Part shown: piece after piece, positions 1 through 63,996 of the stretch
Position numbering within the stretch: position 1 is the first letter of the stretch
Layout of the letters: each line of letters opens with the position of its first letter
Origin: Bacillota bacterium
Lineage (GTDB): Bacteria; Bacillota; Limnochordia; DTU087
DNA length: 64,000 bases
Assembly: GCA_012519025.1 (NCBI GenBank)
Contig: JAAYQZ010000086.1
Location: 3,447 to 67,446 of the forward strand
Direction of reading: 5' to 3'
Translations under genes and position numbers: made by a program
The notes under the pieces: model-generated
What the model saw: the letters and a program-made list of their open reading frames with translations, nothing else
Database searches by the model: none
Told to the model about the DNA's origin: nothing

Positions 1-436
1 GATAACCCCGGTTGAGGCGGTTCGGGAAGCTTTGATTACTTTAGGCAGTGGCGATCTTTCGAAGGCTGTGAGTGCCGCAGATATTTTGCAGCGCCCGGAG
101 ATCAGTTATGGTGATTTGGCGGATATAGGTGTGGAATTGGCTGAACTCGACTGGCAAATTGAAAAGCAAGTAGAGATTGAAATCAAGTTTGCCGGTTACT
201 TGGCTCGCGAACGTCGACAGATGATGGGGATGGAAAAACTTGAGAGGCAGGTAATTCCCCAAGATGTGGTTTATAGGCAGATTAGGGGCCTAAAGACAGC
301 CGCTATCGAATTACTGGAGAAAATCAGACCCATTTCTGTCGGCCAGACCGCACGTATCCCTGGTATTGACAGTGGTGACATTGTGGCCCTACAAGTCTGG
401 CTTAAACAAAGAGAGCGAACCGAAAGCAGTGCTTGA
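1..436 (+). CDS. 3' end of an MnmG/GidA-family protein (5' end lies outside the window); second, divergent mnmG paralog
   Basis: The open frame runs from position 2 to a stop at 436. The translation (..ITPVEAVREALITLGSGDLS..ILQRPEISYGDL..IKFAGYLARERRQ..SVGQTARIPGIDSGDIVALQVWL) aligns with the C-terminal MnmE-interaction domain of the full-length MnmG at 503..2386, at roughly 35% identity. Confidence 0.65.
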   Translation, partial: ITPVEAVREALITLGSGDLSKAVSAADILQRPEISYGDLADIGVELAELDWQIEKQVEIEIKFAGYLARERRQMMGMEKLERQVIPQDVVYRQIRGLKTAAIELLEKIRPISVGQTARIPGIDSGDIVALQVWLKQRERTESSA

Positions 437-502
437 TATGAATGCGGGAGTATGTTGTGAGGACGATCATGAGATCATTATGAGACTAGGGTAGGGTGAG
501 CA

Positions 503-2386
503 GTGGAAAAATTCGATGTGATCGTTGTAGGAGCCGGCCATGCCGGTTGTGAAGCTGCCCTGGCAGCAGCCCGCATGGGGTTTCGCACGGCTATTTTTAC
601 TTTGGCATTAGATAGTGTTGCTATGATGCCCTGCAACCCTTCGATAGGAGGCCCGGGAAAGGCCCATATCGTTAGGGAGATCGATGCACTAGGTGGCGAA
701 ATTGGACGCATTACTGATGAAACTTCTTTGCACGTGCGGATGCTTAACACCAGGAAAGGACCGGCTGTTCGGGCTTTAAGAGCACAAGTTGACCGCAAGC
801 TGTACTCTTGGAAGATGCGTCAAATACTGGAAAGAGAACCCCGGCTGTTCTTGCGAGAAGGTTGTGTTGAAAGAATCCTAGTAAAAGGCGGCCGGGTTTG
901 GGGTGTCGCCTTACGCACAGAAGAAAGGTTTCAGGGAAAATGTGTAGTTGTGGCCAATGGGACATATATGCGTTCTTTAATCCACGTGGGAGAAGTGCAC
1001 TATGAGTCCGGACCCCAGGCTCAGCAGACTACACACGGGTTGAGCCGGAATCTTGAGGAGCTGGGCTTTCAGTTGATCAGGTTTAAGACCGGTACACCGC
1101 CAAGGGCAAACAGCCGTTCTTTGAATTATGACAAAATGACGGCTTTACCCGGCGAAAAACTACCGAGGGGGTTTTCTTTTACTAGTAAAGTGGCAAAGCG
1201 AAAGCAACTGCCGTGTTGGTTGACACATACTACATCGGAAACTCACCGGATTATCTCGGAAAACTTGGATAGAACTGCACTCTACGGCGGCGCCATTATG
1301 GGAATAGGCCCAAGATACTGTCCCTCAATCGAAAGCAAGATAGTGCAGTTTCCAGATAAAGAATCTCATCAGGTCTTCGTAGAACCGGAAGGTTGGGACA
1401 CGCAGGAAGTATACTTGAGTGGTGTTTCTACGAGCTTGCCTGCGGAGGTACAGATGGAAGTGGCCAGAAGTATCCCAGGGCTTGAAAATGTTGAATTCTT
1501 GCGGCTGGCTTATGCCATTGAATATGATTGTCTTGGACCACATCAGTTGAAATCCAGCCTGGAGTCAAAAACGATTCGAGGGTTGTTTTTCGCTGGTCAG
1601 ATCAACGGCAGTTCGGGTTATGAGGAAGCGGCGGCCCAAGGTATTATAGCAGGTATCAATTGTGGTCTTTACCTGCGGAAAGAACAACCGTTGATTTTAG
1701 GCCGCGATGAGGCGTATATCGGTGTATTGATTGATGATCTTGTTACCAAGACTATACATGAGCCCTACCGCATGATGACCTCCTTGGCAGAATACCGCCT
1801 GCTTCTTAGGCAAGATAATGCCGATCGACGGTTAAGTAGATACGGAAAAGACCTCGGTCTTTTGTCTGGGGAACGGTATGAAAAAGTTCAAAGCAAATGG
1901 TATGCTGTTGAAAAGGAAATGGAAAGACTCGGCACATGGCGTATAACACCATCTCAAGTAATTACCGCGGCGTTGGAGTCGGTCGGCAGTACACCTATTT
2001 CCCGTGTAGTAACAGGTGAAGAACTCCTTAGGCGGCCGGAAATAACATATTCAGAACTACGTGCGCTGGGGTTCGAAAGTACATTCGATGAAGAACTGCA
2101 AGAACTCGTTGAAACAGAAGTCAAATATGCCGGCTACATTCTTAAAGAACGCAGATCTGTAGAAAGATTCCAGGCAATGGAAGCCAGGGTACTACCTGAT
2201 TGGATTGATTACGACTTGGTAGAGGGGCTTTCTAAAGAGGCCGCAGAGAAGCTTAACTCGGTTAGGCCGCATTCATTGGGGCAGGCTTCTCGTATTGCCG
2301 GAGTGTCACCGGCAGATATTTCTGTACTGATGGTGTTCTTGGAACATCGGGGACGCCGCCTGAAAGCGAGCGAAAAAACTGATTAG
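503..2386 (+). CDS. mnmG: tRNA uridine 5-carboxymethylaminomethyl modification enzyme MnmG (GidA), GTG start
   Basis: 627 aa. N-terminal FAD motif DVIVVGAGHAGCEAA, GidA core, and the conserved C-terminal domain. Sits directly upstream of rsmG, as in the canonical layout. Confidence 0.92.
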   Translation: MEKFDVIVVGAGHAGCEAALAAARMGFRTAIFTLALDSVAMMPCNPSIGGPGKAHIVREIDALGGEIGRITDETSLHVRMLNTRKGPAVRALRAQVDRKLYSWKMRQILEREPRLFLREGCVERILVKGGRVWGVALRTEERFQGKCVVVANGTYMRSLIHVGEVHYESGPQAQQTTHGLSRNLEELGFQLIRFKTGTPPRANSRSLNYDKMTALPGEKLPRGFSFTSKVAKRKQLPCWLTHTTSETHRIISENLDRTALYGGAIMGIGPRYCPSIESKIVQFPDKESHQVFVEPEGWDTQEVYLSGVSTSLPAEVQMEVARSIPGLENVEFLRLAYAIEYDCLGPHQLKSSLESKTIRGLFFAGQINGSSGYEEAAAQGIIAGINCGLYLRKEQPLILGRDEAYIGVLIDDLVTKTIHEPYRMMTSLAEYRLLLRQDNADRRLSRYGKDLGLLSGERYEKVQSKWYAVEKEMERLGTWRITPSQVITAALESVGSTPISRVVTGEELLRRPEITYSELRALGFESTFDEELQELVETEVKYAGYILKERRSVERFQAMEARVLPDWIDYDLVEGLSKEAAEKLNSVRPHSLGQASRIAGVSPADISVLMVFLEHRGRRLKASEKTD

Positions 2387-2408: not shown

Positions 2409-3134
2409 TTGGTTAGATGTGAAATGGAGATCGTTGATGGGGCAAAGAGTATGGGTGTACTCGTAGCGACAGAGGCAGAGCCGTTGTTTGAGCTTCATCG
2501 ATCCATGATTGTCGAATGGAATCAAAGGTTGAATCTCACAAGCATTCCTGTGCAGGAGATGGGGGAGAAGCATTTTCTCGATTCCCTTACACTACTTTTG
2601 TTGCCGGAAGTAGAGAAATCACGGCGACTTATTGATGTCGGAAGCGGTGCGGGTTTTCCCGGCGTGCCCATTAAAATTGCCCGGCCCAATATGCAGATTA
2701 CTTTGATAGATTCACTGCAGAAACGGATTGAATTTTTAAAGAACGTTATAGATTCTCTTGGATTGGAAGGAATCAATTGTTTTCATGGAAGAGCCGAGGA
2801 AATAGGACAGAACCGAACCCATAGGGAGCAGTACGATGCTGCGGTTGCCAGAGCGGTGGCCCCTTTGGTCCTTCTTGCCGAATATCTCCTGCCTTTGGTT
2901 AGGGTCGGTGGCACCATGGTGGCCATGAAGGGACCGGGTGGTAGGGATGAGGTTCCAGAAGCCGCAGATGCGGTGGAGATGCTGGGGGGAGAATTGTCTC
3001 GAATCATTGACACGGCCTTGCCCAGTGGCGATAGAAGACAGCTTGTGGTGATCAAAAAAATGACTGCTACAGCCGAACGGTACCCAAGAAGGCCGGGAAT
3101 CCCAAGGAAAAATCCGCTGAGCCGAAAAAAGTAG
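2409..3134 (+). CDS. rsmG: 16S rRNA (guanine527-N7)-methyltransferase RsmG (GidB)
   Basis: 241 aa. SAM-binding motif LIDVGSGAGFPGVPIKIARP. Position after mnmG. Confidence 0.9.
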   Translation: MVRCEMEIVDGAKSMGVLVATEAEPLFELHRSMIVEWNQRLNLTSIPVQEMGEKHFLDSLTLLLLPEVEKSRRLIDVGSGAGFPGVPIKIARPNMQITLIDSLQKRIEFLKNVIDSLGLEGINCFHGRAEEIGQNRTHREQYDAAVARAVAPLVLLAEYLLPLVRVGGTMVAMKGPGGRDEVPEAADAVEMLGGELSRIIDTALPSGDRRQLVVIKKMTATAERYPRRPGIPRKNPLSRKK

Positions 3135-3155
3135 CGTTTGATGCATATATTGAAG

Positions 3156-3188
3156 GAGCCCAGCTGAATGCGATGGGCTCTTTGTTTT
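3156..3188 (+). terminator. Rho-independent terminator after rsmG
   Basis: Stem GAGCCCA(3156-3162) / TGGGCTC(3174-3180), followed by TTTGTTTT. Confidence 0.5.
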
Positions 3189-3280
3189 AACGTGATTTGG
3201 ACAGTTTGGCAGGAAAGGTACTTGCGGGAAGAGAAAACTACAAAAGGAATGTATAGGTAATTTTCGATTTTTATGGAGGG

Positions 3281-4159
3281 ATGCAGGTGCGCTTGGGTGA
3301 TGTCCTTCGGGCACGGGTAAAGGATCTGGGAAAAAGGCAGCAGGTCCCAACTAGCCAAGAAGCAGATATAGTTCGGCAGATCCCGTTAGCAGATATTGAG
3401 GTAAATCCGTTCCAACCGCGGGAAACTTTTAACCAAGAGGCGATCCAGGAGTTGGCCCAGTCTTTAGAGGAGCATGGGTTGATCCAGCCTATAGTGGTCC
3501 GCAGTTGCCCAGAAGGCTACCAACTTGTAGCAGGGGAGAGAAGGGTTAGGGCGGCAGCATATCTTGGGTGGGAAACAATTTCTGCCGTTGTGAGGGAACT
3601 TGATGACGCTGCCAGCGCGCAAATGGCACTGATTGAAAACTTGCAGCGGGAAGACTTGGATTTTTGGGAAGAGGCTTTAGCATATCAACAGCTATTGGAG
3701 CAATTTGGGATGACGCAAGACGAATTGGCGCAAAGCATTGGGAAAAGCCAATCATCAATTGCTAATAAACTTCGCTTGTTGAAACTGAGCCCGAAAGTGA
3801 GAAGCAAGATTTCCCGGGAAATAATGACCGAGCGGCACTGTCGAGCCCTATTGAGACTGGATTCAGAAACCAAACAGCTTGAGGTTATTGAAACTGTGAA
3901 AGCGAAACAGCTGTCTGTTCGGGAAACAGAGGCTTTAATCGGTAAGATGCTCAACGATGATGTGGGAGGCGACACTTCGCAAAAGAGTGAGCAAAAGATC
4001 ACTAAGGTTTGGCGTGATGCCAGGTTGCTGCAAAACAGCGTTAGAGAGTTGGTTAAAGAGATGCGGTCCGGTGGGGTTGAAGTTGAACTAGAAGAGTCGG
4101 TTACTTCCGATTTATTGGAAATGCAGATTACAATTCAACGGCAACAGGTCGAAAAGTGA
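3281..4159 (+). CDS. noc: Nucleoid occlusion protein Noc (ParB-family). The real start may be GTG at 3287
   Basis: ParB N-terminal motifs (IPLADIEVNPFQPR, GERRVRAA) plus an HTH. First ParB paralog after rsmG and upstream of soj-spo0J. Carries its own NBS palindrome internally. Confidence 0.8.
   Translation: MQVRLGDVLRARVKDLGKRQQVPTSQEADIVRQIPLADIEVNPFQPRETFNQEAIQELAQSLEEHGLIQPIVVRSCPEGYQLVAGERRVRAAAYLGWETISAVVRELDDAASAQMALIENLQREDLDFWEEALAYQQLLEQFGMTQDELAQSIGKSQSSIANKLRLLKLSPKVRSKISREIMTERHCRALLRLDSETKQLEVIETVKAKQLSVRETEALIGKMLNDDVGGDTSQKSEQKITKVWRDARLLQNSVRELVKEMRSGGVEVELEESVTSDLLEMQITIQRQQVEK
3814..3827. promoter_or_regulatory. Noc-binding site (NBS), a perfect 14-bp palindrome ATTTCCCGGGAAAT
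   Basis: Exact match to the published B. subtilis NBS consensus. Lies inside the noc coding sequence. Confidence 0.6.
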
Positions 4160-4200
4160 TTTTAAGGACTACGTTAATCCAAGAGATGGGGTGAGGTGAA

Positions 4201-4959
4201 TTGGCCGTATGCCTAGCCATTGTCAACCAAAAAGGTGGTGTTGGTAAGAGTACTACTGCAGTAAATCTAGGTGCCTGCTTAGGCGAACTTGGGAAGAAAG
4301 TTCTTCTTGTTGATATCGATCCCCAGGGAAATGCTACCAGTGGAGTTGGGATCGAGAAGAGCCAAGTGGAACGATGCATGTACGACGTGCTTATCGAAGG
4401 CTGTCCCATTGAGGCTGCTGTTCAAAGAACACTTACCCCAGGGTTGGATGCTGTCCCCGCCACGTTGGAACTAGCGGGCGCAGAAATTGAACTAGTAGCA
4501 ACTATGTCCAGAGAGTATAAGTTGAAAAGTGCTTTAGAACCTATACTTGCTAATTATGACTATATTTTAGTGGATGCCCCACCTTCACTGGGGCTTTTGA
4601 CCATCAATGCGCTGTGTGCAGCTACAGCCGCATTAATCCCGATCCAGTGTGAATACTACGCGTTGGAAGGGGTGAGTCAGTTGATGGGAACCGTTGGGCT
4701 TGTAAAGGAGCATCTAAATCCAAATCTCGAAATCTGTGGAATTTTAATGACTATGTACGATGCCCGCACGAATCTGTCCCAGCAGGTAGTAGAAGAAGTG
4801 CAGAAGTTCTTTGGTGATAGGGTGTTTAAAGCTATCATTCCCAGAAACGTGCGTTTGAGTGAGGCACCTAGCCACGGCCAGCCGATCATAATGTATGATG
4901 AACACTGTCGTGGTGCTTCGGCGTATAGAGAGTTAGCTAGGGAGTTGATCGGAGCATGA
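4201..4959 (+). CDS. soj: Chromosome partitioning ATPase Soj/ParA
   Basis: Deviant Walker A motif KGGVGKST. 252 aa. Position between noc and spo0J. Confidence 0.92.
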   Translation: MAVCLAIVNQKGGVGKSTTAVNLGACLGELGKKVLLVDIDPQGNATSGVGIEKSQVERCMYDVLIEGCPIEAAVQRTLTPGLDAVPATLELAGAEIELVATMSREYKLKSALEPILANYDYILVDAPPSLGLLTINALCAATAALIPIQCEYYALEGVSQLMGTVGLVKEHLNPNLEICGILMTMYDARTNLSQQVVEEVQKFFGDRVFKAIIPRNVRLSEAPSHGQPIIMYDEHCRGASAYRELARELIGA

Positions 4960-5813
4960 CAAGACCTGCGTTGGGCCGCGGTTTGAAAGCCCTCATTCCT
5001 CAAATGGAGGAAAGTGGTGACATCGTTCAACAGATCCCTTTGGAGTCCATTGAAACCAATCCTTTCCAGCCCCGGGTTGATTTCAGCGAAGAGGCTCTCA
5101 AGGAACTTGCTGCTTCGATCCGGGAAAAGGGAGTCCTGCAGCCGATTACTGTCAGGCCCCATAAGAACAGATTTCAGTTGGTTGCCGGCGAACGTCGCTG
5201 GCGTGCTTCCAAGGCAGCTGGGCTGACAGAAATTCCAGCACTTGTCAAAGATTTAACAGATCAGCAAATTATGGAGATAGCCCTAATTGAAAATTTACAG
5301 CGGGAAGATTTGAACCCGATTGAGGAAGCCCAGGCGTACGAAACGTTAATTCGGCAATTTAGGCTAACCCAGGAAGAAGTGGCAAGTGCAGTAGGGAAAG
5401 GGCGACCTACAGTTGCCAATCGGATAAGATTGTTGCAGCTGCACGAGGACGTGCAGCAGTGGATTGCAAAAGGGGATTTGAGTGCCGGCCACGGAAAGAT
5501 TCTGGCTGCGTTAGAGAAAGATAGAGCCTGGGAGTTGGCCCAAGTATGTGTTCAAGAATCCTGGTCAGTTCGGCAGCTTGAGGCACACCTTAGTTCTGTA
5601 GGTGCCGAGTCCACAAGTGGCAGGCCCCCCATAAAGAAATCTGGTAGGCGAGATCCATTAATAACGGAAATTGAGGATCAACTGAGGGGCGTGTTTGGTA
5701 CTAAAGTTTTGGTACGGGACAACAAGGGTAAAGGCAAGATTGAAGTTGAATACTACTCCCCGGAAGAACTGAACCGTATTCTGGAAATTATGGGATGCGG
5801 GGTATGGGATTGA
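4956..5813 (+). CDS. spo0J: Chromosome partitioning protein Spo0J/ParB
   Basis: ParB motifs IPLESIETNPFQPR and GERRWRA, plus HTH. ATGA overlap with the soj stop. Confidence 0.9.
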   Translation: MTRPALGRGLKALIPQMEESGDIVQQIPLESIETNPFQPRVDFSEEALKELAASIREKGVLQPITVRPHKNRFQLVAGERRWRASKAAGLTEIPALVKDLTDQQIMEIALIENLQREDLNPIEEAQAYETLIRQFRLTQEEVASAVGKGRPTVANRIRLLQLHEDVQQWIAKGDLSAGHGKILAALEKDRAWELAQVCVQESWSVRQLEAHLSSVGAESTSGRPPIKKSGRRDPLITEIEDQLRGVFGTKVLVRDNKGKGKIEVEYYSPEELNRILEIMGCGVWD

Positions 5814-5829: not shown

Positions 5830-6582
5830 TTGAACGACACCAACTTAAGACGAATGTTGTTGGAATTTAAAGCAGGTGCCATTGATCAAGATGCCGTCAT
5901 TGAATATGTGGAGTCTGGTCTTTATGAAGACGTGGGATTTGCTAAAATTGATCATCACAGGGCAAAACGCAAGGGCTTTCCGGAGGTAATCTATTGTGCA
6001 GGCAAATCCAAGCAGCAAGTAGTGGAGATATTTCAGCGGTTGGCCGATCGCAGTGATAAGGTTCTGGCCACTCGCGCCGATTCCGCTGTCGGTGAAGCGG
6101 TTTGCGAAGCCGTTAAGGATGCAAAGTACCATGAGATTGGGCAATTAATTACTTTGGGATGGTCCAGGAGCGAGCCAGAGGTAGAACAACCCTACATAGC
6201 AGTAATTAGTGCCGGTACTTCAGATTTATCTGTGGCAGAAGAGGCCGCTGTTACAGCGGAAATTATGGGGAGCAAGGTAGTGCGGGTCTATGATGTTGGG
6301 GTAGCCGGCCTACACAGGCTGTTTGGCGAACTGCATAAAATAGAAGATGCTAAGGCCGCTGTAGTTGTGGCTGGAATGGAAGGCGCTCTGGCGAGTGTTA
6401 TCGGCGGTTTAATTCACAGCCCGATTATAGCGGTCCCTACCAGCGTAGGTTATGGAGCTGCTTTAGGAGGGATGGCTGCACTGCTGGGTATGCTCAACAG
6501 CTGCGCACCCGGTGTTACTGTTGTGAACATCGACAACGGGTTTGGGGCGGGGTATAGTGCTCATTTAATCAGCACAGTGTGA
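5830..6582 (+). CDS. larB: LarB-like nickel-pincer cofactor biosynthesis protein (PurE-like P2CMN synthase), TTG start
   Basis: 250 aa. N-terminal LarB-specific region, then a PurE/AIR-carboxylase-like domain (IAVISAGTSDLSVAEEAA..VYDVGVAGLHR, GMEGALASVIGG). Confidence 0.7.
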   Translation: MNDTNLRRMLLEFKAGAIDQDAVIEYVESGLYEDVGFAKIDHHRAKRKGFPEVIYCAGKSKQQVVEIFQRLADRSDKVLATRADSAVGEAVCEAVKDAKYHEIGQLITLGWSRSEPEVEQPYIAVISAGTSDLSVAEEAAVTAEIMGSKVVRVYDVGVAGLHRLFGELHKIEDAKAAVVVAGMEGALASVIGGLIHSPIIAVPTSVGYGAALGGMAALLGMLNSCAPGVTVVNIDNGFGAGYSAHLISTV

Positions 6583-6748: not shown

Positions 6749-7948
6749 TTGGTGAACGTTTATATTGACTGTTTTTCAGGAGCCAGTGGAAACATGTTCC
6801 TCGGGGCATTGCTGGACTTAGGCGTTCCCGAGGAAATCTTCCAAGGCGTTATCACCGCTTTGGGTCTGGAAGATGTACACCTGGAAATAACTAGAGTGGC
6901 CAAGCAGGGGATTGCGGCTTGCCATGTCGTTGTCCACCATCCTGAACAGCATGTACACCGCCATTTGCAAGATATAGTTGAGATTATTGAACAAGGGAGT
7001 CTTGAGCCTAAGGTAGCAACACGTGCCATCGCAGTGTTTGAAAGGTTGGCTGAAGCGGAAGCTAAAGCCCACGGTACTACTGTGGATGATGTTCATTTCC
7101 ACGAAGTGGGGGCTGTTGATGCCATTGTCGATATAGTCTGCACTGTGGCTGGGTTTCATCATCTGGGTGCAGAAGAGATACGTTCAAGTCCCGTCCATTT
7201 AGGGACAGGCTTTATAGATGTGGCACACGGCACCATGCCCATACCGGTGCCCGCTACTGTGAATCTACTGAGTGGAGTTCCAACCTATTCCAAGGGGATA
7301 CCCAATGAGTTAGTGACACCTACCGGCGCTGCCCTGTTGACAGAACTTGCTTCCGCTTACGGTCCCATGTCTAGTGGGCGATTAATCAAGGTTGGATATG
7401 GAGCAGGAACAAGAGATTTACCGATACCTAATTTGTTAAGACTAGTGTTGTTCGAACCAATACCTGAAGGCAAAACACTTTGGGACATGGATGAAATAGC
7501 TGTTATGGAATGCTCGATCGATGACCATAACCCTGAATTACTTCCCCCTTTGGCCCAAAGCCTGCTTGATAATGGTGCCCTTGACGTGTATGTGCAAAAT
7601 GCAATCATGAAGGGGGGGCGAGCCGGTGTCGTTTTAACTGTGCTTTCTCCCCTCGAACTGCAAGATGCCCTGGCAAAGCTGATTTTCAAAGAGACCACAA
7701 CACTGGGAATTAGGCTGGAACGCAAAAAACGCTACACACTTCCAAGGGAAATGATTTCAGTTGAGGTTGCCAGCGAAAACATCCAAGTCAAAATAGGAAA
7801 GTTGGGGGAGGATGTTGTGACGGTAGCTCCCGAATACCGGGATTGCTATCAGGTGGCCCAAACTGTGAAACTGCCTGTCCGGGAAGTATACGACCGCGCT
7901 AAAACCGCCGCCCGTGCAGCTTTACAGCTGGGTTCCGCAGCTGTTTAA
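6749..7948 (+). CDS. larC: LarC-like nickel insertase (DUF111 family). The ORF-track start at 6677 is probably too long; TTG/GTG at 6749-6752 precedes the conserved YIDCFSG motif
   Basis: N-terminal VYIDCFSGASGNMFLGALLDLG, typical of the LarC/DUF111 family. About 400 aa. Confidence 0.8.
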   Translation: MVNVYIDCFSGASGNMFLGALLDLGVPEEIFQGVITALGLEDVHLEITRVAKQGIAACHVVVHHPEQHVHRHLQDIVEIIEQGSLEPKVATRAIAVFERLAEAEAKAHGTTVDDVHFHEVGAVDAIVDIVCTVAGFHHLGAEEIRSSPVHLGTGFIDVAHGTMPIPVPATVNLLSGVPTYSKGIPNELVTPTGAALLTELASAYGPMSSGRLIKVGYGAGTRDLPIPNLLRLVLFEPIPEGKTLWDMDEIAVMECSIDDHNPELLPPLAQSLLDNGALDVYVQNAIMKGGRAGVVLTVLSPLELQDALAKLIFKETTTLGIRLERKKRYTLPREMISVEVASENIQVKIGKLGEDVVTVAPEYRDCYQVAQTVKLPVREVYDRAKTAARAALQLGSAAV

Positions 7949-8001
7949 AGGGTTTGGCAAAGCAGAGAAGCAGCCAACTTTTGTTTCTATGCTTTGCCTT
8001 T

Positions 8002-8712
8002 CTATTCAATTTTGGAAGGTGCAACAGGTACTGACTCCCAGCTTCCACTAGAGAAAGGGATGCTTATATGATGTGTCCCTTTGTTTACTGCACAAGGGTA
8101 TAATGTCCTTTGGTACATATAAAGGAGCCCGGCAAGTGCATCGACCATAACCTGTGCCATGCGCATGACAAGACTCAAACGAGTATTTTGTAAAACAAAA
8201 TACTCCATGAACCCACCAACATTGACTACTCCGATCAAATGGCTCGTGCCGACTTCAACCAATTGTTTGTTTACACCGGTGCCGGGTTTGAGGGGTCCTT
8301 CCTTGGCCGTGATGTAGCCGATATTTTCAGATTTCCCTAGACATGCATCCAGAGCCAAAACATAAGAGTGTTGGTGTTTTTGCTGGAGCAATTCGGCGTA
8401 CTTCTCCAGATTTCCGGCATGCACGGGCTGTTCTAATGTGCCCAACACTTGTACTCCCGGTGGCAGTCTGTAGGATTCCAAAAGCTTAGTGCCGACAAGG
8501 GGACCTAGGGAATCGCCGGTGGAGCGATCGGTACCAACGCAAAGAATAACCAGTTGTGCCGGTTTATGCGGTGTGGCCATCAGGGAAAGCTCGGGCACCA
8601 TAAAAGTCCAAAGATCCTGGGCCAGCGTTTCCGGCCCCCTTGCATTGTCTATATGCACCCGCGAAACGTAATCAGGGTTCGTTTGTCCTTGGGAAGCCCA
8701 AGCCTTTGTCAA
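8002..8712 (-). CDS. yyaC: Sporulation protein YyaC (DUF1256 family)
   Basis: Conserved core LVILCVGTDRSTGDSLGPLVGTKL. Lies next to the soj-spo0J region, as in B. subtilis. Confidence 0.75.
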   Translation of the reverse strand: MTKAWASQGQTNPDYVSRVHIDNARGPETLAQDLWTFMVPELSLMATPHKPAQLVILCVGTDRSTGDSLGPLVGTKLLESYRLPPGVQVLGTLEQPVHAGNLEKYAELLQQKHQHSYVLALDACLGKSENIGYITAKEGPLKPGTGVNKQLVEVGTSHLIGVVNVGGFMEYFVLQNTRLSLVMRMAQVMVDALAGLLYMYQRTLYPCAVNKGTHHISIPFSSGSWESVPVAPSKIE

Positions 8713-8823
8713 AAACCTTCACTCCTTCAATCTAATTATTCACAGTCAAGTATATGAAGGATCATGTTGATCTATACATATATGGAAGGTGTGAATTGAT
8801 GAAAGCGGGATTGGCGGTGAACT

Positions 8824-9891
8824 ATGCTGGGTGTATGGTGGTCTTTTGCCGCAGCATACGTAGGGGCAGTTGTGGGGGCGGGGTTTGCATCTGGCCAGGA
8901 ATCGCTGACTTTTTTCGTGGTTTATGGCCACAGTGGCCTGATGGGAATTATACTGGTCTCCGTGGGCTTCATGCTCATGGGCGGCTTTAGCTTCATGTTG
9001 GCACATGCTTTAGGTGATGGCTCATATCGGCGTGTTCTTGAGGTTATCTGTGGAACAGGGTGGGCGAAGTACTACGATATTGTGGTCACCTGCTTTCTTT
9101 TAGCGGGTGTTGGAGTCATGCTGGCCGGTGCTGGATCTTTGATGCAGCAGCAGTGGGGAATTCATCCTCTGGTTGGGATAATTGCTACTGCTTGTTTTAC
9201 TGGTGCAAGCTGCATAAAAGGGGCAAAAGGTGTACTTTTCGTCAATGGTCTGTTGGTTCCAGTCATTTCAGTCTGCGCCATTGTTCTTGGAGTCAATGGC
9301 TTGTTGAAAATCTGGCCTTCTATACGCGCACATGGACTGGTAGTGTTGTGGAAAAGTGCTCCGTCAGCCTTAATCCCCAATTGGTGGCTTTCCGGTTTGA
9401 TATATTTGGCGTATAATTCCATGTTGGGTATTGCTGCTTGTATACCTGTGGCAGCGACGCTGCCCTCAAGGCGTTTCGCCTTTTGGGGCGGCATGGGGGG
9501 TGGACTGCTTCTTGGAATATTACTGCTTACAGGAAGCCTAGCTTTGTGGGGCAGGGGTTCTTCTACAGCAAATTCCCCTATACCCCTTGCCTTAGTAGCT
9601 GACGGCATCCATCCCATTTTCGGCAATGTCTACGGCATTGCTATTTGGTTTGCCATGCTTACTACGGCAGTTACAAATCTATTTGCCGTTGTGCAGCGAT
9701 ATGGGTCGGGGACACAAGCAGCAACTGTGGGGATGTTTTTATCTGTTGGACTGGTTTTGTCCTTAGTAGGGTTCGGGTATTTGATTGGATTGCTTTATCC
9801 CATCTTTGGTTACTTGGGAAGCGTCTATGTAGCAAAGTCTTTGGTATATTTCAGTAAAGATATATTACGCCAAACTAACAGGAGAAAATGA
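8824..9891 (+). CDS. Polytopic membrane protein, YkvI/YyaD-like
   Basis: 355 aa with about 10 predicted TM helices. The position beside yyaC mirrors B. subtilis yyaD. Confidence 0.45.
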   Translation: MLGVWWSFAAAYVGAVVGAGFASGQESLTFFVVYGHSGLMGIILVSVGFMLMGGFSFMLAHALGDGSYRRVLEVICGTGWAKYYDIVVTCFLLAGVGVMLAGAGSLMQQQWGIHPLVGIIATACFTGASCIKGAKGVLFVNGLLVPVISVCAIVLGVNGLLKIWPSIRAHGLVVLWKSAPSALIPNWWLSGLIYLAYNSMLGIAACIPVAATLPSRRFAFWGGMGGGLLLGILLLTGSLALWGRGSSTANSPIPLALVADGIHPIFGNVYGIAIWFAMLTTAVTNLFAVVQRYGSGTQAATVGMFLSVGLVLSLVGFGYLIGLLYPIFGYLGSVYVAKSLVYFSKDILRQTNRRK

Positions 9892-9984
9892 TTCCCACCT
9901 GGATAACATATTAAGGTTACGATATAATAGGGGCAAAAATAGGGAGGAAGCGGCCGAATAACCAACTAGTAGGCTGCATTACTG

Positions 9985-10512
9985 ATGACAGAACAAAAAG
10001 CAGCAGAACTTAGACATACAGTTACCCGTTTAACAGAAATCGGTGAGCTGGAAGAGGCCAAGGAAGCGATTCAAAAATTGATCGAACTTGAAGGCCACTC
10101 GTCATTTGCATACAACAAGTTGGGTGTCATTTTTGCTAGATCGGAAGATTTGGGCCGGGCAAAGACATGTTTTGAAAATGCACTAACCATAGAGCCGGAG
10201 TCTGCTCCCGCATTGAGCAATTTGGGCAATGTTTATAGGGAAAATGGTGATCTTGATGGAGCGATTAGACTCTACAAAAGCGCAATTGAATATGATCCTG
10301 ACTATGCTACTGCTTATCACAATCTTGGTGTTGTTTACAGACAAAAAGGTGATTTCCAAAAGGCTGTTGAACACTTGAAGCAGGGAAATAAACTGCAAAG
10401 GGTAATGGCCCGCAGGGAATTAAAAGGTACATCCTTAGGGAAGAGACAACCTGTATTCTGGGTTGTACTGGCGCTTGCGGCGGCTGCCTTTTTGTATCTA
10501 TTCCGCCGCTAG
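9985..10512 (+). CDS. TPR-repeat protein with a C-terminal membrane anchor
   Basis: Repeated TPR motifs (A..N.G.VY...GD...A...Y..A...DP) and a hydrophobic C-terminus (VFWVVLALAAAAFLYLF). Confidence 0.6.
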   Translation: MTEQKAAELRHTVTRLTEIGELEEAKEAIQKLIELEGHSSFAYNKLGVIFARSEDLGRAKTCFENALTIEPESAPALSNLGNVYRENGDLDGAIRLYKSAIEYDPDYATAYHNLGVVYRQKGDFQKAVEHLKQGNKLQRVMARRELKGTSLGKRQPVFWVVLALAAAAFLYLFRR

Positions 10513-10631
10513 GACGTTTCGCCGTTGGATAAAGGCTTTACGTGTTGTTTGAACATGTGGCCTATTGCAGCAATCAAAAAACTGCATGGATGCCTGCCAT
10601 TGGATCGGCCTTTATTAGGGAGGAGAGTCAT

Positions 10632-12008
10632 ATGTATCTAGTGATCCGTCTGCGGCGCTCGGCTCTACTCGTGATTATCGCGGTCATTATGATCGGCTGT
10701 CTTTCCAGTGTAGGTTATGCTTTTGTGGCTTCATATTTGGGTGGAGACGCTATTGCCCAAGGGGTTTCCGTTGCTTCAATAAATGTCGGAGGTCTCAGTT
10801 ATCAGGAGGCTAAGGCATTTTTGGGGAAATACCTGCAGACTGTTACCGACACTCCGCTTTCCATTGTCTGTGGAGATATTGAGTGGGATGTTGTACCGGG
10901 TCAAATTGGCATTACCACTGATCTGGACAATATTCTCACTTCTGCTTTTCAAGTAGGCAGACAAGGACATTTATTGAGACGAATATCCGACTACATCCAA
11001 AGCCAAAACCATGGGTGGGAGGTACCTCACATTGTCTCAGTTGATCGGGAAAAGCTGACCTCAGTTCTTAGAAAGATTGCTCTCAGTGCCAATCTTCCTC
11101 CCATAGATGCCGGGTTTCGCATAACTTCCAGTGGTGAAGTGGAAGTTATCCCCGGAATTCCCGGTCAAAAAGTGGAGCTAGATCAGCTGCTCAATGACGT
11201 AGTAACTGCTTCAATTTCCCCCAAAAGACGTACTGTTACTGTTACCCCCGAGCTAGTGACACCGGATTTTTCTACACAAGACGCCTATGCTTTACATATT
11301 CGGAGACCTATTGCCCAGTTTGCAACCGGGTTCGATCCCCAAGATGAAAACCGAGTAGCGAACATTCGTTTGGCGGCCCAAGAGCTGCAGGAGGTCCTCA
11401 TAAGGCCCGGCGAAATATTTAGTTTCAACCGTAAGGTCGGGCCTCGGTTGGATTCTGAAGGATACAAAGCCGCCCCGGTGATTATTAATGGACAGCTTTT
11501 ACCAGGTATCGGGGGAGGAGTATGCCAAGTATCTACAACACTATATAATGCTGTGCTTTTAGCCGGACTGGATGTGATCACCCGGTCCCCCCATTCCCTT
11601 CCTATTGCTTATGTCCCTTTAGGCCGAGATGCGGCTGTTGCTTACGACTATCTGGATCTTGTTTTCCGCAATAACTCACCATATGGTTTACTGCTCAATG
11701 CCGAAGTAGAATATGAGCGGCTGATCATCAAAGTTTATTCAGATGCACCCGAGGGAAGGAAAATTGAGCTGGATTCCAGTATAGTGCGGATCCTGGAGCC
11801 TGGAATAATACGGAGATTTGATCCTTCGTTGCTTCCCGGAACAGTGGTGGAGGAGAGGAAAGGCCGGCAGGGGTATGAAGTGCAGCTGTGGCGTGTCATA
11901 AAAATCGATGACAAGGTTGTTCACCGTGAATTGATCGAGGAAAGCACCTATAGACCCCAGGACAGATTAGTCAGGCAAGGGGTAGTGCCTAAATACGATG
12001 ATGATTAG
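10632..12008 (+). CDS. VanW-family protein with an N-terminal TM segment. Start chosen at the ATG preceded by AGGGAGGAG
   Basis: VanW core GGGVCQVSTTLYNAVLLAGLD..R..H..P..YVPLGRDAAV. A G5-like domain upstream. Confidence 0.75.
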   Translation: MYLVIRLRRSALLVIIAVIMIGCLSSVGYAFVASYLGGDAIAQGVSVASINVGGLSYQEAKAFLGKYLQTVTDTPLSIVCGDIEWDVVPGQIGITTDLDNILTSAFQVGRQGHLLRRISDYIQSQNHGWEVPHIVSVDREKLTSVLRKIALSANLPPIDAGFRITSSGEVEVIPGIPGQKVELDQLLNDVVTASISPKRRTVTVTPELVTPDFSTQDAYALHIRRPIAQFATGFDPQDENRVANIRLAAQELQEVLIRPGEIFSFNRKVGPRLDSEGYKAAPVIINGQLLPGIGGGVCQVSTTLYNAVLLAGLDVITRSPHSLPIAYVPLGRDAAVAYDYLDLVFRNNSPYGLLLNAEVEYERLIIKVYSDAPEGRKIELDSSIVRILEPGIIRRFDPSLLPGTVVEERKGRQGYEVQLWRVIKIDDKVVHRELIEESTYRPQDRLVRQGVVPKYDDD

Positions 12009-62884: not shown

Positions 62885-62975
62885 GCCGGAGTGGCGAAAC
62901 AGGCATACGCGACAGACTTAAAATCTGTTGATCCCTTCTAAGGTCGTGCGGGTTCGAGTCCCGCCTCCGGCACCA
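62885..62975 (+). tRNA. tRNA-Leu (anticodon TAA), type II with a long variable arm. CCA is encoded
   Basis: Acceptor stem GCCGGAG/CTCCGGC, anticodon loop CTTAAAA, T-arm GGTTCGAGTCC, and 3' ACCA. Confidence 0.85.

Positions 62976-63919: not shown

Positions 63920-63996
<77 letters not shown>

Follow-up and report, generated by a model that had tools for sequence, protein, structure and literature searches.

Why would a bacterium carry two divergent copies of mnmG (gidA) side by side? The question is raised by the first 2,386 nucleotides (nt) of a 64,000-nt stretch of contig JAAYQZ010000086.1 (assembly GCA_012519025.1, positions 3,447 to 67,446, forward strand) from a Bacillota bacterium of the Limnochordia lineage DTU087, a stretch referred to in its full length as the window. 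The MnmE-MnmG complex is a universally conserved wobble-uridine modification machine, the human counterpart of which, GTPBP3-MTO1, is mutated in mitochondrial disease. The window opens within the 3′ end of one mnmG (copy A, mnmG-A), followed by a complete second gene (copy B, mnmG-B). Our analysis indicates that the two copies are very probably both functional MnmG enzymes that have been retained since ancient times. They are ordinary MnmG enzymes in a conserved, unexplained two-type arrangement, which is a lineage-wide trait and not a peculiarity of the window genome. The elements concerned are as follows.

2..436, + strand: 3′ end of mnmG-A (open frame; Pfam C-domains; C-terminus of NLK08519.1), comprising the C-terminal MnmE-binding subdomain and a portion of the helical domain

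437..502, + strand: intergenic spacer between A and B, 66 nt (from the sequence)

503..2386, + strand: mnmG-B, complete, 627 amino acids (aa), GTG start, canonical sequence type (Pfam, TIGR00136)

The window holds just 144 codons of gene A (2-433, with TGA at 434-436). These match GIDA_C_1st (E 1.7e-14) and SAM_GIDA_C (E 3e-15), both C-terminal MnmG domains in Pfam, which confirms the C-terminal domain that an initial annotation, made from the letters alone, had described as unmistakable. Its estimate of about 35% identity between this fragment and the downstream MnmG becomes 38% by BLASTP (139 residues, against B residues 481-618, E 5e-31), as compared with 61% identity between the fragment and copy A of the metagenome-assembled genome (MAG) at locus L006. 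Copy B contains the GIDA domain (E 2.6e-160) as well as both C-terminal domains. Beyond the window edge, gene A proves to be complete. The last 144 residues of NLK08519.1 (protein P0020, 629 aa, from a "Bacillota bacterium" MAG) match the window translation at 144 of 144 positions, window copy B is identical to NCBI protein P0126, and the largest contig listed for P0020 and for P0126 is 84,495 bp in both cases. Residues 1-485 of gene A are known from this protein record and the position of mnmE from relatives, both lying outside the window. The 629-aa protein has a complete MnmG fold, with the flavin adenine dinucleotide (FAD)-binding motif GxGxxG and the two catalytic cysteines; its AlphaFold model (predicted local distance difference test score 92.7, predicted template-modelling [TM] score 0.93) superposes on the MnmE-bound E. 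coli protomer 9hip_C with a TM score of 0.92 and a root-mean-square deviation of 2.4 Å over 624 columns.

The initial annotation had named a short remnant devoid of the FAD-binding domain as the outcome that would undo its proposal; in its place stands a full gene with the FAD motif present. That the upstream open reading frame (ORF) is a pseudogene remnant in which the C-terminal domain alone was kept might still be suggested by the 144 codons visible in the window, by an in-frame TAG in the A copy of locus L001, and by the termination of contigs L003 and L004 within gene A. This reading is nonetheless very unlikely indeed, considering (i) the identical 144-residue terminus of the 629-aa protein, (ii) A genes that are intact (621-641 aa) in all relatives except L001, itself covered at 2.5x, (iii) a ratio of nonsynonymous to synonymous substitution rates (dN/dS) of ~0.06 in orthologues, and (iv) the retention by window A of 120 (and by window B of 126) of the 129 positions at which conservation among 182 other MnmGs is 90% or more.

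Several observations concern the individual contigs. L001, the closest metagenome relative, is a contig of 1,061 bp on which the rest of an MnmG comes before the C-domain and a second mnmG begins after it; its TAG (542-544) aligns to a Lys codon in L003 and is most likely a sequencing error or a strain-level pseudogene. L003 and L004, from the same species as the window, stop 74 and 30 nt before window position 1, for which strain variation or low coverage is possible; gene conversion or an A/B repeat as the cause of these ends is ruled out by the low nucleotide identity of A and B (detailed below). Locus L002 has a single mnmG that was called as two pieces (2968-4356 and 4423-4875; 462 and 150 aa), so that its C-domain stands alone in protein databases (P0002); a frameshift is the probable cause, the contig coverage being 3.8x. 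The A/B junction itself recurs in L003 and L004, which are independent metagenome assemblies, with 3 substitutions in 520 nt and an identical spacer, and the tandem pair is therefore not an assembly artefact. A word-indexed homologue search with the 144-aa fragment returned only 4 proteins, whereas the full-length A of L006 retrieved the family; the apparent rarity of copy A at the outset was thus an artefact of a short and divergent query. In its central claim of tandem, divergent mnmG paralogues, the initial annotation holds, with both genes at full length.

Are both proteins MnmG in the strict sense? TrmFO (Gid), the folate/FAD-dependent tRNA m5U54 methyltransferase of ~435 aa, resembles MnmG in its superfamily core and in flavin-mediated methylene transfer. 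It is without the MnmE-binding helical C-domain, which both window proteins (~628 aa) possess. As the FAD/insertion-domain core is common to TrmFO and MnmG, the visible fragment of A by itself could not exclude a fusion, and the initial annotation had proposed, as one option, a TrmFO/MnmG-family variant with the MnmE-binding C-domain. This option falls away. On the NCBIfam MnmG equivalog model TIGR00136 (cut-off 524.85 bits), A (P0020) reaches 787.6 bits and B 819.7 bits, as opposed to 71-80 bits for A and B (75-78 bits for P0020) on the TrmFO models TIGR00137 and NF003739, the cut-offs of which are 262 and 428.65 bits. Alignment to E. coli MnmG gives 599 bits for A (residues 8-623) and 625 bits for B (9HIP/3CES, end to end), at 46-47% identity for the window copies. 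TM scores to TrmFO structures are 0.34-0.36 for both window proteins, i.e., 0.34 for the A model that reaches 0.92 on MnmG. A TrmFO/MnmG hybrid is ruled out by these model scores, alignments and TM values, and an upstream gene in which an MnmG C-domain has been joined to a TrmFO-like protein or another GidA-family variant is scarcely credible.

The finer diagnostics agree. The FAD Rossmann motif GxGxxG (E. coli G13/G15/G18) reads VVGAGHAGCEA in B, inside the window, and VVGGGHAGCEA in A (P0020, outside the window), and is kept in 100% of both clades; MnmG-specific motif 1 (residues 273-287) is present as GPRFCPSIDRKVMRF in A and as GPRYCPSIESKIVQF in B; and a C-terminal helical MnmE-binding domain is predicted in both, with both Pfam C-domains present and Y551 and K547 kept. 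The genes also have the operon linkage of mnmG, with rsmG in the window and mnmE directly 5′ of A in relatives. On all sequence and fold criteria examined, both window proteins thus belong to the MnmG family.

Conservation was followed through 43 A-clade and 39 B-clade sequences at the residues that Maes et al. 2025 list as experimentally important (PMC12397908, Table S3). MnmG requires both C47 and C277 (PMC10723064). Invariant in both clades are G13/G15, C47, N48, G52/G53, K56, G67/G68, R96, G156/T157, T201/P202, C277, K283, Y308, Y377, R427, R436, R515, K547 and Y551; in clade A, position 199 is T or S and position 275 is R or H. The initial annotation had recommended a check of FAD-site and tRNA-binding residues in each copy; both copies keep the FAD motif and the two essential cysteines. 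In comparisons of the closest species, A has a dN/dS of 0.054-0.061 and B one of 0.050-0.086, and both copies are under strong purifying selection. Nucleotide identity between A and B amounts to 65-73% over the main blastn matches (250-470 nt), and two further ones (25 and 59 nt) reach 85-88%; at so low an identity, no recent gene conversion has taken place.

How widespread is the arrangement? The order mnmE, mnmG-A, mnmG-B, rsmG occurs in ~25 independent loci, the pair having been found by homology in 13 lineages and by motif search in 11 further metagenome loci. A scan of GTDB species genomes yielded five MAGs in which A and B are both complete (L005, L006, L007, L008 and L009+L010), among which L006 displays the order dnaA, rnpA, yidC, jag, mnmE, mnmG-A (635 aa), mnmG-B (634 aa), rsmG, noc, parA, parB. 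The four-gene order is likewise present in Limnochordia-labelled contigs (L014-L017, L021), in L018/L019, in the complete genome of Natroniella sp. ANB-PHB2 (CP175562.1, Halanaerobiales; L020) and in L024, a basal relative of the Natroniella clade. The initial annotation had regarded the pair as unusual, mnmE being the canonical upstream neighbour of mnmG; in whole lineages of anaerobic Firmicutes it is instead the rule, and mnmE does lie beyond the upstream gene, directly 5′ of A in L006, L014-L021, L024 and many metagenome loci, i.e., in every relative for which that region is available. One mnmE is found in the operon of relatives, and no further mnmE was detected in the 64-kb window. Single mnmG genes occur in Desulfofundulus kuznetsovii (L022), L023 and L002.

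A metagenome scan for the A motif GPRFCPSIDRK returned 22 loci, in 11 of which an A-type copy is followed by a canonical one; L029, L037, L041 and L043 are motif-scan loci that end before the downstream region. Wherever an A gene with the loop insertion described below has downstream sequence, a canonical mnmG comes next (21 of 21). Spacing between the two genes ranges from ORF overlaps of 8-14 nt (L014, L016, L020, L021, L024) through gaps of 3 nt (L005, L006) and 43 nt (L018) to the 66 nt of the window.

The A type is also encountered alone. In L026 (3774-5630, − strand), L033 and L038, the single mnmG between mnmE and rsmG is A-like: it has 7 of the 10 signature sites introduced below, reads RFQSATPPR and GPRFCPSIDRK, and lacks the loop insertion. 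Such a gene has also been noted in L028 and L039. The A signature as the mark of a paralogue that never occurs alone is ruled out by L026, L033 and L038. Other layouts were observed as well. L030 carries a different tandem mnmG pair (7470-9266 and 9323-11158, + strand), with a divergent upstream copy (0 of 10 A sites, RFRTDTAPR, TPRHCPSIESK, K56R) and a downstream copy that is A-like (7 of 10). In L027 (2122-3111, + strand) and L041 (892-1884, − strand), a 329-aa ORF lies between mnmE and a full-length A-like mnmG; it resembles the N-terminal half of MnmG alone (24-32% identity), with GxGxxG present and without the CNP cysteine motif or the C-terminal helical domain, and possibly represents a third, degenerate kind of partner gene that is MnmG-like.

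What, then, distinguishes the two copies? NCBI gives mnmG-A and mnmG-B an identical product name. Compared with generic MnmGs, the A type is defined by ten sites: Q80N, K198Q, G200A, H252I, L264I, Y276F, E281D, D282R, S313T and L316M. The core motif KTGTPPR becomes Q[ST]ATPPR (K198Q, G200A) and GPRYCPSIEDK becomes GPRFCPSIDRK (Y276F, E281D, D282R), and there is an insertion in the G53-G55 loop, which in Limnochordia-type A amounts to one extra residue (GGPAAKSH). Copy B is canonical at the motifs altered in A, but has R174P, E177Q, D282S and R286Q/E. In the last subdomain (E. coli 554-624, MnmE interaction surface 2), A of the window lineage evolves faster, with 41% identity to generic Firmicutes proteins versus 54% for B, and window A carries E585A and K589L. 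In E. coli, the double mutants T199/G200 and T201/P202 show impaired function. The G53-G55 loop touches the helical domain of MnmE, and one of its positions is the site of a disease mutation in human MTO1 (PMC12397908).

E. coli MnmG (9HIP/9HIQ, 3CES; PMC12397908) shares with the window copies the catalytic cysteines, the MnmE-contact regions and the operon partners mnmE and rsmG. There, however, one mnmG encodes a homodimer, as opposed to two adjacent genes with ~48% identity in the window lineage, and neither the altered motifs and extra loop residue of A nor the R286Q/E of B are seen.

The A states have a defined distribution. Nine Halanaerobiales-type upstream copies score 6-8 of 10 and their downstream copies 0, against a mean of 0.5 for generic MnmGs; proteins from outside pairs that reach 6-8 of 10 include the Fusobacteriota MAG protein P0258 (8 of 10). 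As the upstream copies of both lineages carry the signature sites, they belong to one type, and the pair is old. The ten-site signature would also allow mnmG-A and mnmG-B to be told apart in annotation.

Did the pair arise by duplication in place? Neighbour-joining trees were built from 274-278 dereplicated MnmGs, using Kimura as well as Scoredist distances and 100 bootstraps in each case; a 50%-identity representative library, which held no separate A-clade member (best match 50-53%), provided the diverse outgroup set. Monophyly is recovered for the B clade (bootstrap 100 for a 39-member core; 48-74 with L021 B and P0157) and for the A clade (bootstrap 83 for 43 sequences in the first tree; 91 with P0237 added in the second trees). 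Both clades share an inner split, with the window and DTU087-like MAGs on one side and a "Limnochordia" group on the other, and this parallel indicates co-divergence. A and B are not sisters in these trees, deep-node bootstraps being below 20%. A and B within one genome are 46-52% identical (~48% for the window pair), and Limnochordia A shares 52-59% with the upstream copies of Halanaerobiales. Single-copy MnmGs of Firmicutes are 60-62% identical among themselves, as against 46-58% to either A or B. These data fit duplication in situ, with later losses elsewhere, and acquisition of a second type alike. Of the old tandem duplication put forward in the initial annotation, the old and divergent pair stands, and duplication as its origin is not established, given that A and B are not sisters and that an A-like gene is the sole copy elsewhere; the phylogeny it had called for supports the monophyly of each clade and not a sister relation between them.

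Could a foreign mnmG simply have entered the operon and been kept through redundancy or dosage, with no real specialisation? The trees lend this some colour, as they do not join A and B, placing A beside the upstream copies of Halanaerobiales type and a set with a Fusobacteriota protein among its members, and B weakly with Desulfotomaculia-type single-copy MnmGs; A-like genes are, moreover, the sole operon copy in other lineages. The deep nodes, however, have bootstraps below 20%, and pure redundancy sits badly with the conserved substitutions specific to each clade, with retention in 21 of 21 loci and with a dN/dS of 0.05-0.09 for A as for B. Because both copies are constrained, redundancy without specialisation is unlikely, and we regard this scenario as improbable overall.

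Fusobacterium nucleatum offers a parallel. In this organism, a protein named "MnmG 2" in UniProt (Q8RI88) adjoins RsmG (Q8RI89), which at the level of annotation implies two MnmG paralogues, MnmG 1 and MnmG 2, in one genome (PMC11602996). ktrA precedes MnmG 2 in the neighbourhood table, so the copies are apparently not adjacent, unlike the window pair (PMC11602996). No functional study of F. nucleatum MnmG 2 was found in the literature; beyond the UniProt name in that one neighbourhood table (PMC11602996), no literature was found on a second mnmG/gidA gene, tandem or not.

To what end would both types be kept? E. coli MnmG is a dimer of which, in the α2β2 complex, one protomer alone binds MnmE and FAD, the binding sites for MnmE and tRNA overlapping (PMC12397908). 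MnmG binds FAD and NADH, and the methylene group passes from MnmE-bound methylenetetrahydrofolate (CH2-THF) to FAD, as a flavin-iminium, and on to U34; through this single intermediate, E. coli MnmEG can use glycine, ammonia or taurine as nucleophile (PMC10723064). A and B would both be active MnmG subunits, each receiving methylene from MnmE-bound CH2-THF on FAD for the formation of xm5U34 on tRNA. The two would have split the ancestral MnmG job between them while sharing one MnmE. We propose that their co-transcribed, often translationally coupled products form an A·B heterodimer in place of the MnmG homodimer, an explanation to which, taken as a whole, we assign a probability of about 0.45. 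Such a heterodimer would fix in the subunits themselves the asymmetry of the E. coli α2β2 MnmE-MnmG complex, with A supplying altered active-site and MnmE-contact motifs and B the canonical ones. We favour it because of (i) the fixed gene order, (ii) the frequent ORF overlap, (iii) the strict co-occurrence, (iv) the accelerated change in both copies and (v) the reciprocal changes in MnmE-contact motifs.

A precedent for such a transition exists in tRNA modification, where the ADAT2/ADAT3 (Tad2/Tad3) heterodimer of paralogues replaced a TadA-type homodimer. The analogy is imperfect: ADAT3 lost a catalytic residue, whereas both MnmG paralogues keep all of theirs.

Several points weigh against the heterodimer. 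Both copies keep complete catalytic sites, and many paralogue heterodimers have one degenerate subunit. Adjacency and overlap are to be expected of tandem duplicates in a compact operon in any case, and mnmG-B and rsmG overlap as well in L014, L021 and L024. The A-like sole operon genes of L026, L033 and L038 suggest that the A type may be able to act alone as a homodimer. Given that a sister relation of A and B lacks tree support, the dimer interfaces need not be compatible if the pair came about by gene transfer. Finally, the spacer in the window is 66 nt long, and the DNA upstream, including mnmE, lies outside the window.

Some of these points would be accommodated if A and B formed two separate MnmG homodimers, i.e., isoenzymes that compete for, or alternate on, one MnmE and differ in the subset of tRNAs or in the nucleophile that they use (glycine versus ammonium or another amine). 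The complete catalytic and MnmE-binding equipment of both copies is consistent with this, and the A-like sole copies of L026, L033 and L038 fit isoenzymes better than a heterodimer. The substitutions in A fall in active-site motifs (KTGTPPR, and motif 1 beside C277), where a change of specificity would be expected, and the E. coli enzyme accepts glycine, ammonia and taurine (PMC10723064). On the other side, no MnmG specificity determinant is known by which to interpret such substitutions; strict co-occurrence, fixed order and overlapping ORFs over deep time fit a stoichiometric complex at least equally; and there is one mnmE in the operon, with none elsewhere in the 64-kb window. We consider isoenzymes a possible explanation, with chances that fall clearly short of even.

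Returning to the heterodimer, it shares with the isoenzymes a broader proposition, which we advance tentatively and would not yet bet on: that Limnochordia-type and Halanaerobiales bacteria require two ancient MnmG types, either as an obligate A·B heterodimer with distinct protomer roles in the asymmetric MnmE-MnmG cycle or as two enzymes that make different xm5U34 side chains or serve different tRNAs. The MnmE-MnmG catalytic cycle is still being worked out, including the cause of its asymmetry and the manner in which tRNA and MnmE share one MnmG surface. Two constrained MnmG versions that differ in active-site motifs and in those contacting the MnmE swivel helix would separate functions that are superimposed in a homodimer, and interest in the pair would rise if either the heterodimer or a new specificity were true. 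Natroniella, cultured and with a complete genome, opens the system to experiment.

Downstream of the pair, the window continues with the following genes.

2409..3134, + strand: rsmG (gidB; Pfam GidB, E 2e-48)

3281-4159, + strand: noc/parB-like (Pfam ParB_N/HTH_ParB)

4201-4959, + strand: parA/soj (Pfam AAA_31/CbiA)

4956-5813, + strand: parB/spo0J (Pfam ParB_N/HTH_ParB/ParB_C)

rsmG is the usual gene 3′ of mnmG, and noc/parA/parB constitute the origin-proximal operon setting typical of Firmicutes; the order noc/parB-like, parA, parB is common to L003, L006, L014, L016 and L018. Within the A/B spacer (437-502), no terminator-like or promoter-like site was predicted, and a purine-rich Shine-Dalgarno-like stretch, AGGGTAGGGTGAG, is located at 488-500, before the GTG start of B. 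Beyond parB lie larB-like (AIRC), larC-like (Ni_insertion) and DUF1256 (yyaC-like) genes (window 5830-6582 and downstream; L003 5904-8022), a layout also seen in L018. The sole RNA genes detected in the window are tRNA-Leu(UAA) and tRNA-Met(CAT), at 62885-62975 and 63920-63996; tRNA-Leu(UAA) is a tRNA type that MnmEG modifies in E. coli.

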